A stretch of 53,534 nucleotides of DNA. Origin: Promethearchaeati archaeon (GTDB taxonomy: Archaea; Asgardarchaeota; Heimdallarchaeia; Heimdallarchaeales; Heimdallarchaeaceae). The position numbers were made by a program, and so were the translations under genes. Numbering within the stretch: the first letter of the stretch is position 1; every line of letters starts with the position of its first letter. The DNA lies in assembly GCA_013166775.1 (NCBI GenBank), contig JABLTJ010000023.1, positions 1-53,534 on the forward strand. Reading direction: 5' to 3'. Positions 22,613-24,022 of this stretch are shown here, piece by piece. Below the pieces are notes generated by a model, which was not told the DNA's origin, searched no databases, and was given only the letters and a program-made list of their open reading frames with translations.

Positions 22613-24022
22613 TTAAATTGGGGGAGCGATGAATTTATTGTCCATCAAACTCTGAGTTAAATCTCGAGCATACTTGATTTTTTCTTCAGCCATCTTAAAG
22701 AGTTCTTCTTCTTCCATAATGGTTCGAGCAACACCTTGTTCGATAGCTTTCATACCAACTTTGGTTGCTTCGAAGGGGAAAAGCTCCCATTCTGACATAG
22801 CTGGAATGATGTATTTGTCAGTTGTACCTTTCTTAATTGCTATATCAGCAATAGCTTGAGCAGCTGCAACACACATCTCATCAGTGATTGTAGTTGCATT
22901 GACATCTAAAGTACCTCTGAAAATACCTGGAAAACCAAGACTGTTATTGATTTGGTTATCAAAATCGCTACGACCTGTACCAACAACTCTAGCTCCAGCA
23001 GCTTTTGCTTTCCAAGGCCAAATTTCTGGGATCGGATTCGCACATGCAAATACAATACTATCTGATGCCATTTTTGAAACCCATTCTTGTTTGACCACAT
23101 CCTCTGCAGATTTGGATGCTGAAATCATAACATCTGCTCCTTCCATAGCATTACCAAAGTCACCACTTAAACCTTCACCGTTTGTCTTCTGTGCTAAGTC
23201 ATATTTGAAAGAATCATAGTCTTTTTGCTCAATGATATCTGGTCTATCTTTTGTAATGATTCCCTTGGAATCAGCCATGACTATGTTCTTTAGAGGAACA
23301 CCTGCTGCTTCAAGTACGTAAGCAGTTCGAGTATTAGCTGCACCAACACCAAGCATAGCAACTTTAAGTTGATCGAGTTCTTTACCAACGTGATGAGCAG
23401 CTCCAATAACACCTCCAACAACTACAGAAGCTGTTCCTTGAGCATCGTCATGCCATACTGGTATAGTTATTTCAGGGTCGTTACGTAGTGTTTCAAGCAC
23501 TGTATAACATTTTGGTTTAGAAATATCTTCTAAATTAATACCTCCTACTGAAGGTTGGAGAAGCTTTACAAAATTGATTATTTCTTCTGCTGATGGTCTT
23601 CTACCAGGATTTCCAATACTTAAGGCAAAAGCGTCTACACCTCCAAGGTATTTGAAGAGCAATGCTTTTCCTTCCATGACTGGTTGACCAGCTTCAGGTC
23701 CAATATCTCCTAAGCCTAAAACTCTAGTTCCATCAGAGACTACAGCTATTGTATTAGCTCGATTAGTCATTCTGAAGGATTCTGTAGGATTAGCAGCAAT
23801 CTGTCTACAAGCCTCTGCGACACCTGGTGTATTCTGGATTAAGAGTCGCAACTCTTCAATTTACCACACAGCAAAAGCGTCGAAACCCCAGACACTCGCT
23901 TTTGGCACCGTTTGCATCTTTCCTTTGTAGAATGGATGCAACCTTACAGCATCAGCTGATGGCTTTTTAGCCTTTGCCAAAAGTTTATCTATTTCTTCTT
24001 TTGTTAATTCTTTTTCACTCAT
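22613..24022 (-). CDS. mae: NAD(P)-dependent malic enzyme in two exons (24022-23862 and 23831-22613; 459 aa if spliced)
   Basis: LHPFYKGKM...FAVW|Y|TPGVAEAC, VVSDGTRVLGLGDIG, VMEGKALLFK, INLEDI, WHDDAQGT, ANPIPEI, TGRSDFDNQINN. GGTGA before ATG 24022. The two track ORFs are in the same frame. Confidence 0.92.
23832..23861 (-). other. Candidate 30-nt bulge-helix-bulge-type mRNA intron
   Basis: mRNA sense reads TGG TA|AATTGAAGAGTTGCGACTCTTAATCCAGAA|T ACA CCA. Removal gives W-Y-T-P-G-V. The insert is a hairpin and the junctions sit in two 3-nt bulges. Confidence 0.75.

Follow-up and report, generated by a model that had tools for sequence, protein, structure and literature searches.

An interrupted malic enzyme gene

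The DNA analysed here (the window, 53,534 nt; contig JABLTJ010000023.1 of assembly GCA_013166775.1, a Promethearchaeati archaeon of the Heimdallarchaeaceae) carries on its minus strand a malic enzyme gene that is interrupted by a short insert, which is considered below as a candidate intron of the type removed by the tRNA-splicing endonuclease EndA. The two malic enzyme open reading frames (ORFs), 24061..23861 and 23851..22613, lie in a common frame, and the minus strand reads GCT GTG TGG TAA ATT GAA GAG TTG CGA CTC TTA ATC CAG AAT ACA CCA GGT where they adjoin. The in-frame TAA (23863-23861) stands directly after TGG (23866-23864), which is codon 53 from the ATG at 24022, and ten codons after the stop the unspliced frame resumes the malic enzyme with AAT ACA CCA GGT GTC. 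When the 30 nt at 23861-23832 are deleted, or the 30 nt shifted upstream by 1 nt, the sequence becomes TGG TAT ACA CCA, which encodes W-Y-TPGV, and the deletion restores a product of 53 + 1 + 405 = 459 aa from ATG 24022. The coordinates, the common frame, the length of 459 aa and the frame-restoring deletion with its 1-nt shifted alternative had been proposed in a first-pass annotation, and all are correct upon re-reading of the minus strand.

A comparison with uninterrupted orthologues, which read ...FAVW-Y-TPGVA..., places the insert within a conserved part of the protein: the PF00390 match starts upstream of the junction and crosses it, and the alignment with the nearest solved structures (3NV9 and 1WW8) runs through the junction. 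Exon 2 encodes the malic N-terminal and NAD-binding domains with 93% identity to uninterrupted orthologues. The predicted exon-exon junction is GUGUGGUAUACACCAGG, with the halves GUGUGGUA and UACACCAGG. The interrupted gene is the sole malic enzyme match, and hence a single copy, in the 3.85-Mb genome of the window (G000; other genomes are numbered G001, G002 and so on), and no protein identical to the full-length 459-aa product is present in the protein collection. The features of the locus and of the related loci are listed in Table 1.

Table 1. Features of the interrupted malic enzyme gene, of its predicted RNA structure and of related introns
Feature	Location	Position	Strand	Description
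Exon 1	window	23862..24022	-	ATG 24022, 53 codons to Trp, then TA of the catalytic Tyr codon; tblastn orthologue alignment begins at 24022
Putative intron, 30 nt	window	23832..23861	-	AAUUGAAGAGUUGCGACUCUUAAUCCAGAA; register 1 nt upstream equivalent; unique in the genome
Exon 2	window	22613..23831	-	Tyr third base, TPGVAEACR..., 405 codons and stop (22615-22613); PF00390 and PF03949
Outer exon-exon helix h, 5' strand	window	23868..23878	-	pairs with 23830-23820
Central helix, 5' strand (exon GUGG)	window	23864..23867	-	pairs with intron CCAG; first position is a G.G mismatch
5' bulge UAA	window	23861..23863	-	predicted 5' splice site UA↓A; doubles as in-frame stop of the unspliced RNA
Inner hairpin h'	window	23838..23860	-	AUU-G-A, A bulge, GAGU, loop UGCG, ACUC-UU-AAU; 23 nt
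Central helix, 3' strand (intron CCAG)	window	23834..23837	-	followed by bulge AAU (23833-23831) with predicted 3' splice site
Outer exon-exon helix h, 3' strand	window	23820..23830	-	ACACCAGGUGU; core UGU/ACA
Two of the four introns in tRNA Phe-GAA, Asn-GTT and two Gln-TTG genes	G000, C22	~14984-15016, 36096-36125	+	
The other two of these four tRNA introns	G000, C97	~81577-81607, 82706-82735 (reverse complement)	-	
Malic enzyme insert	G020			30 nt, AATTATTGAGTCGAGGCTCGTAATCCAAAA
Malic enzyme insert	G002 (Candidatus Heimdallarchaeota bin51)			31 nt, TTCTAACTAGTCGCGGCTTTTAGAAACAGAA
Malic enzyme insert	G018 (isolate RS_7_21)			31 nt, TGTAGATTAGTTGAGGCTTTTCTAACCAGAA
Malic enzyme insert	L313 (ENA scaffold)			30 nt, AATTAATGAGTTGCGGCTCTTAATCCAAAA
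Malic enzyme genes	JGI contig (P0003)			66-aa and 412-aa genes 9 nt apart; second protein starts LRLLIQNTPGV

Inserts at the same codon in related lineages

The genus is represented by 25 genomes including G000, and in most of the other 24 the malic enzyme gene is uninterrupted. Five further lineages carry a homologous insert of 30 or 31 nt in the identical Tyr codon, so that six lineages are known so far: G000, G002, G018, G020, the ENA scaffold ERZ23498365 scaffold_71264 (L313) and the JGI contig 3300042731, the last of which is known from its gene products alone. The alignment of orthologues called for by the first-pass annotation thus reveals presence and absence precisely at this codon. 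In the five carriers with DNA sequence, the insert always separates the TA of the Tyr codon from the third base, and removal of the insert yields W-Y-TPGV in 5/5. All six pairs of introns among G000, G020, G002 and G018 are more alike than shuffled sequences (p <= 0.005), which indicates that these four introns are homologous and of one origin.

The 31-nt inserts are particularly informative because they shift the reading frame. In G002 and G018, a stop lies in the frame of exon 2 at 4-6 codons upstream of TPGV, and no start codon follows it before this motif. Readthrough and separate translation of the two halves are therefore excluded as general explanations, and in these two carriers a full protein can arise solely through removal of the insert from RNA or DNA.

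The intron also leaves a trace in public annotation. In the records P0003 and P0005, 412-aa malic enzymes are called from a TTG or ATG inside the intron and begin with (L/M)RLLIQNTPGV, and separate orphan ORFs of 53 or 66 aa adjoin them; this mis-annotation is systematic and is caused by the intron. A metagenome scan with a first pattern for the intron gave 0 matches, and a relaxed pattern returned at least 120; those listed are all ordinary malic enzymes that lack an interruption and have TGGTA upstream by chance.

The insert in DNA and selection on the gene

In three DNA runs of a single marine-sediment study, Logan contigs span the insert with 0 differences; the assembly may derive from two of these runs, and the third is a separate sample. 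The presence of the insert in DNA, for which a check had been proposed, is thereby confirmed. In all three runs, a second contig of similar depth aligns to 23731-23832 with 9 differences in 102 nt, and its alignment stops exactly at the intron border at 23832. Such an end would be expected if the contig came from a relative that lacks the intron (TGTATA...) or has another one.

No other copy of the 30-nt insert is found in G000 by blastn-short (self-match only), and a degenerate pattern of the family core matches only the malic enzyme site in the 25 genomes of the genus. Neither a target-site duplication nor terminal inverted repeats are seen at the insert.

The ratio of nonsynonymous to synonymous substitution rates (dN/dS, NG86 method) between carriers and their nearest relatives is 0.04-0.09 for exon 1 and 0.03-0.09 for exon 2, with synonymous distances (dS) of 0.4-0.8 to the nearest relative. 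For G000 itself, the value is 0.04-0.08 for exon 1 against its nearest relatives and 0.05-0.09 for exon 2. Pairs of intronless genes fall in the same range (0.045-0.106). Other stops or frameshifts are absent from the malic enzyme genes of the carriers, which agrees with the first-pass statement that the rest of the gene shows no decay. Purifying selection on both exons in several lineages indicates that the protein is still made and, consequently, that the insert is removed or bypassed. Two properties of a protein-coding intron, namely purifying selection on the gene and a position that is conserved among relatives, are hence both observed.

Predicted RNA structure of the insert

The insert and its flanks can be arranged as a motif of the bulge-helix-bulge (BHB) type between an outer helix h and an inner helix h', for which the definitions of the hBHBh' and relaxed motifs in PMC6379350 were used. 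All elements of the fold that had been described earlier are present (hairpin 23860-23838, GUGG/CCAG, bulges UAA and AAU, UGU/ACA). The inner hairpin contains 9 bp, and the outer helix consists of 2-3 bp next to the motif and a further 7-8 bp, such that h and h' each have at least 2 bp. Both bulges are present, with the predicted cuts UA↓A after GUGG and AA↓U after CCAG. As had been claimed, cleavage after the second bulge base, a rule that follows PMC6379350 and a preprint on Asgard tRNA introns (10.64898/2026.10.13.758758), restores the frame in the five sequenced carriers. The handedness was checked against a tRNA intron at position 37/38: each bulge is located 3' of its strand of the central helix, which is the arrangement of a real BHB.

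Across the five carriers, 82.5% of the cells of the BHB model are paired (inner hairpin 89%, outer helix 82%), compared with 38-47% when the partners are slid. The hairpin persists through changes of G.U to A-U, A-U to U.G and U-A to U.G, and three pairs are altered on both sides. In the central helix, the pairs of columns 16-48 and 17-47 are invariant, 18-46 is paired in 4/5 and 15-49 is never paired, with a purine-purine combination in 5/5. The first-pass description of the motif as non-canonical owing to its G.G mismatch therefore extends to every sequenced carrier, and the purine-purine first pair makes it a relaxed motif and not a canonical hBHBh'.

Counted as a central helix with at least 3/4 pairs, an inner helix of at least 5 and an outer helix of at least 3, this geometry occurs at 1.0e-4 of arbitrary positions in G000 for an intron length of 30. 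At a site that is fixed in advance by protein homology, its occurrence is non-random.

A 13/14-nt near-copy (TGTGTGGGAAATTG) of the exon 1/intron junction (TGTGTGGTAAATTG) lies at 24049-24062 on the minus strand, in the 5' leader of the gene; the pattern with at most 1 mismatch has 3 matches in 7.7 Mb. The near-copy was rejected as a conserved alternative splice partner, as it has no counterpart in the three other carriers examined, and it probably lies outside the splicing mechanism.

Splicing enzymes and tRNA introns of the genome

Two paralogous genes of the EndA family (PF01974), of 185 aa each, are present in G000, at C97:86517-87074 (minus strand) and at C1:26077-26634 (plus strand). The C97 protein is closest to 3P1Z_B, the catalytic subunit of the Aeropyrum pernix heterotetramer (E 4e-34), and retains the Tyr/His/Lys triad; its K41 aligns with APE K44, the Crenarchaea-specific loop lysine. 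The C1 protein is a divergent paralogue. The crenarchaeal specificity loop and its lysine confer broad specificity, and the lysine is required for relaxed substrates (PMC3241643); two EndA paralogues are reported from most Asgard genomes (10.64898/2026.10.13.758758). RtcB is also found (536 bits). The host gene set accordingly comprises the two enzymes that such an intron calls for, a predicted broad-specificity-type EndA and a predicted RtcB ligase.

Four tRNA genes of G000 (tRNA-Phe, tRNA-Asn and two tRNA-Gln) contain introns of 30-33 nt at T-loop position 59/60, which were verified by removing the candidate and then finding a normal tRNA with ARAGORN. A dedicated search was needed to recover them, in which 2/6 of the matches in G000 and all of those in G001 were false positives; a strict BHB scan with ARAGORN recovered only two canonical tRNA introns in the anticodon loop. 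The malic and tRNA introns are alike in layout, with a 4-nt exon strand, 2 nt before the 5' cut, 1 nt after it, a hairpin, a complementary 4-nt strand and AA before the 3' cut. The four tRNA introns have a common TTCA/TGAA central helix and hairpin loops of the form U-YGMG-G (TTGAGG, TCGAGG and TTGCGAGG), and the loops of the malic introns are TTGCGA, TCGAGG, TCGCGG and TTGAGG. The 4-nt helix of tRNA-Asn covaries from TTCA/TGAA in G000 to TTCG/CGAA in G020, which indicates that the layout is under selection in the genus.

Among 14 genomes of the genus in which the tRNA-Asn gene was found, the T-loop intron is present in G000 (L296) and G020 (L308) only; the loci compared with these were L295, L297, L299-L304, L306 and L307, and the G006 gene is cut by the contig end just past ...ggttcaaatttattt. 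Both tRNA-Asn intron carriers also bear a 30-nt malic intron. In the tRNA-Asn of G015 (C288, L298), likeness is lost right after the anticodon arm (GTTAAACGATtacatgc...), which may be due to a long intron, to a tRNA encoded in split form or to a break in the assembly.

Search for further mRNA introns

A scan of G000 for strict BHB geometry yields 15,543 matches that are distributed evenly across intron length, with about 300 chance matches per length. Combined with an ORF-joining filter, it left 1,917 candidates, mostly terminators or operon junctions, and this route was dropped; BHB geometry is worthless as a genome-wide search pattern. A homology-based finder, in which all ORFs of at least 100 aa were compared by reciprocal tblastn between G000 and 2.59 Mb (71%) of the congeneric G001, re-found the malic intron and revealed no second credible mRNA intron in G000 or the searched part of G001; the other matches were artefacts of 5' leaders or C termini and shadow ORFs. 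The suggestion that other genes might be split by short hairpin inserts is thus not borne out against 71% of G001, and the malic intron is an isolated case in the genome, with no burst of mRNA introns.

Distribution and possible origin of the intron

In the gene tree, the four carriers placed with their sequences fall into four subclades, each with intronless sisters, which requires at least 4 changes; a single ancient gain would require approximately 12 precise losses by a hand count on the tree. The malic enzyme gene of G048 (C28, L024), a genome listed under another family of the class, is near-identical to that of G011 (L023) of the genus, with terminal branch lengths of 0.005-0.006, and G048 also has a second copy. 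The near-identity points to a recent transfer or a binning mix-up.

The exons next to the intron show an unusual tract, which extends over 23 nt upstream and 13 nt downstream of it and in which G002 and G018 are identical at 34/36 sites versus 76% elsewhere (binomial P = 0.004). In the same tract, G018 differs from its sister G008 at 8/36 sites versus 6% elsewhere, and G002 has a Ser codon that is typical of the clade of G018, whereas all sisters of G002 have Asp. The simplest reading is that an allele with the intron was exchanged laterally, through homologous recombination in which a short tract was co-converted. A structural constraint that freezes synonymous sites could account for part of the tract and would leave the Asp/Ser difference unexplained. 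The patchy distribution most likely stems from homologous recombination that exchanges alleles with and without the intron, and the intron family is limited to one site in one Heimdallarchaeial genus.

The malic intron of G020 resembles the T-loop introns of tRNA-Asn from G000 and G020 (shuffle p = 2e-4 and 4e-4) to the extent that malic introns resemble each other. The G000 malic intron is weakly similar to tRNA introns (p = 0.02), and for the 31-nt malic introns the similarity is not significant in the shuffle test. These values, which come from hairpins of 30 nt and a shuffle null that ignores hairpin symmetry, give a limited hint of a common origin of the mRNA and tRNA introns. A possible but rather doubtful extension is that a mobile family of tRNA-type mini-introns, derived from or akin to the tRNA-Asn intron, lodged in the mRNA where the codons by chance supply the exon half of a splicing motif, and now spreads and disappears among species of the one genus through homologous recombination that co-converts about 35 nt of flanking exon; with a stop in the 5' bulge of the unspliced RNA, splicing efficiency could then also set the level of the enzyme.

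Interpretation and alternatives

In light of the inserts at the same codon, the selection on both exons, the helices that are kept among carriers, the enzymes of the host and the similar tRNA introns, the 30 nt at 23861-23832 are very probably an archaeal EndA-type intron with a relaxed BHB motif in the single malic enzyme coding sequence of G000, as the first-pass annotation had supposed. In the pre-mRNA, the end of exon 1 would pair with the start of exon 2 through an outer helix formed by the AF(A/G)VW and TPGVA codons, and the intron would fold into its 23-nt hairpin. Pairing of exon GUGG with intron CCAG would expose UA↓A and AA↓U as two bulges, and a heteromeric EndA would cleave each of them after its second base. 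RtcB would then ligate the exons to form the UAU (Tyr) codon and hence the 459-aa enzyme, releasing a 30-nt and probably circular intron. Left unspliced, the RNA would be translated for 53 residues up to the UAA of the 5' bulge, and every product would lack the catalytic Tyr. From the sequence comparisons we infer the cleavage sites, the ligation and the occurrence of splicing itself.

Several results weigh against this interpretation. The central helix does not reach 4 bp: three standard pairs and a purine-purine mismatch are present in 4/5 carriers, and that of G002 has just 2 Watson-Crick pairs. RNAfold and RNAalifold favour a 5x5 internal loop over the BHB register, which leaves the bulges off the minimum-free-energy state, and the z-score of the single-sequence fold is -1.5. 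The stem covariation that had been suggested as a check is seen in part: the hairpin and the exon-exon helix are kept through changes, but the signal is modest with five related sequences, the observed values being reached in 32-45 of 500 shuffles. The complementarity of the outer helix, encoded by the AF(A/G)VW and TPGVA codons, is equally strong in intronless orthologues; the outer helix was accordingly rejected as an adaptation to the intron, and this built-in exon-exon complementarity may explain why the site can host such an intron. Lastly, no RNA run is listed as containing the malic enzyme locus, which is represented by DNA contigs of two studies.

That last point would also fit a pseudogene in which a small insertion broke the gene and the enzyme was lost, as would the unspliced frame, which ends after 53 codons. 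This explanation is very improbable, given six lineages with the insert at the same codon and no other lesion, dN/dS values of both exons that equal those of intact orthologues at considerable dS, a hairpin that is kept through changes and the status of the gene as the only malic enzyme gene in the genome. Assembly of an active enzyme from a 53-aa N-terminal and a C-terminal piece of about 405-412 aa that remain unjoined would account for the two ORFs 9 nt apart that gene callers report in three carriers, the second from a TTG or ATG in the insert. Such a two-piece enzyme is hardly to be expected, since in G002 and G018 the stretch from the final in-frame stop to TPGV offers no start codon, the G020 insert contains no ATG, GTG or TTG, and the catalytic Tyr of the 30-nt carriers would be absent from both pieces. 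Ribosomal recoding of the unspliced mRNA would likewise dispense with splicing, either by readthrough of an in-frame insert of ten codons, as the 30-nt inserts of G000, G020 and L313 would permit, or by bypassing over the hairpin. A stop codon directly before a hairpin is the layout of bypassing in phage T4 gene 60. The 31-nt inserts of G002 and G018 are nevertheless incompatible with readthrough, and with the Tyr codon split (UA...U) in the 30-nt carriers, neither readthrough nor a hop would decode the Tyr of YTPGV; matched take-off and landing codons are also lacking, as the insert has neither UGG nor UAY at its 3' end. Recoding thus has a very small chance of being correct.

Removal by means other than EndA, be it the precise excision of a tiny mobile element from DNA or another RNA activity that recognises hairpins, is unlikely, albeit consistent with a number of observations. 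Presence and absence are patchy and precise among close relatives, the exon tract around the intron suggests exchange at the DNA level, the central helix is imperfect, and the alignment of a related contig in the same samples ends at 23832. The hallmarks of a mobile element are missing, however, as there are no terminal inverted repeats and no target-site duplication, and the 25 genomes of the genus contain no second copy of the family. The contigs of the three runs hold only the insert-bearing form, although contigs drop rare variants. The layout, moreover, matches that of the EndA-type tRNA introns of the genome, including the covarying 4-nt strand of tRNA-Asn, and the positive support for removal by other means is limited to the patchy distribution.

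Relation to known systems

The closest precedent for the putative EndA-type intron in the malic enzyme gene is the BHB intron that Desulfurococcales and Sulfolobales carry in the pre-mRNA of cbf5, a pseudouridine synthase gene (Watanabe 2002; Yoshinari 2006; Yokobori 2009, PMC2738675). In both cases, a short intron interrupts an archaeal protein-coding sequence at a BHB-like exon-intron motif, the host has a hetero-oligomeric EndA with a crenarchaeal-type specificity loop, presence and absence are lineage-specific, and gene callers report two ORFs. Whereas cbf5 functions in RNA modification, the malic enzyme belongs to central carbon metabolism, the host is a member of the Heimdallarchaeia (Asgard), and the split codon is that of a catalytic residue. 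The malic central helix is relaxed, and the carriers are distributed far more patchily, over four subclades of a single genus that each include intronless sisters. For cbf5, reverse transcription PCR has shown the splicing, whereas that of the malic enzyme mRNA is predicted.

Non-canonical introns at T-loop position 59/60 of tRNAs are processed by broad-specificity EndA in ARMAN-2 and Thermoproteales (PMC12397907, PMC3241643). Together with the tRNA introns of G000, they resemble the malic introns in their length of 30-33 nt, the 4-nt exon strand and its complementary 4-nt strand, the 3-nt bulge cut after base 2, the AA before the 3' cut and hairpin loops of the form U-YGMG-G/A. In contrast, the host RNA of the malic intron is an mRNA, its outer helix is formed by codons and not by the T stem, and its central helix is mismatched, whereas that of the tRNA introns is perfect (TTCA/TGAA, TTCG/CGAA).

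The splicing of HAC1/XBP1 mRNA by IRE1 and RtcB in eukaryotes is comparable in mechanism: it is non-spliceosomal, an endonuclease cleaves two small loops, RtcB ligates the RNA, and the change of reading frame decides whether an active protein arises. Its endonuclease, the kinase/RNase IRE1, is unrelated to the EndA family, its RNA motif is a different one, and in the IRE1 system regulated, stress-induced splicing is established. A BHB-flanked element in the 5' untranslated region of a Haloferax volcanii mRNA, found upon depletion of EndA (PMC7714728), is another EndA substrate in an archaeal mRNA, as predicted for the malic intron. The Haloferax element lies in an untranslated region, whereas the malic intron interrupts a codon and its removal is required for the protein.

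In the literature searched, spliced archaeal protein-coding mRNA is described for cbf5 of Crenarchaeota only, in addition to the Haloferax element, and the word mRNA occurs 0 times in the text of the Asgard tRNA-intron preprint (10.64898/2026.10.13.758758). The gene, the phylum (Asgard) and the interruption of a catalytic codon are therefore new here; the signals of mobility and the kinship with tRNA introns would be new if confirmed. Because gene callers split or truncate the malic enzyme gene, metabolic reconstructions can miscall the enzyme as broken. Asgard archaea are the closest prokaryotic relatives of eukaryotes, and the case widens the question of interrupted protein genes, and of the machinery for their removal, before the spliceosome. 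The scattered carriers, their common exon tract and the tRNA-like intron of one carrier offer a testable system for the movement of such introns, which bears on tRNA introns as well.

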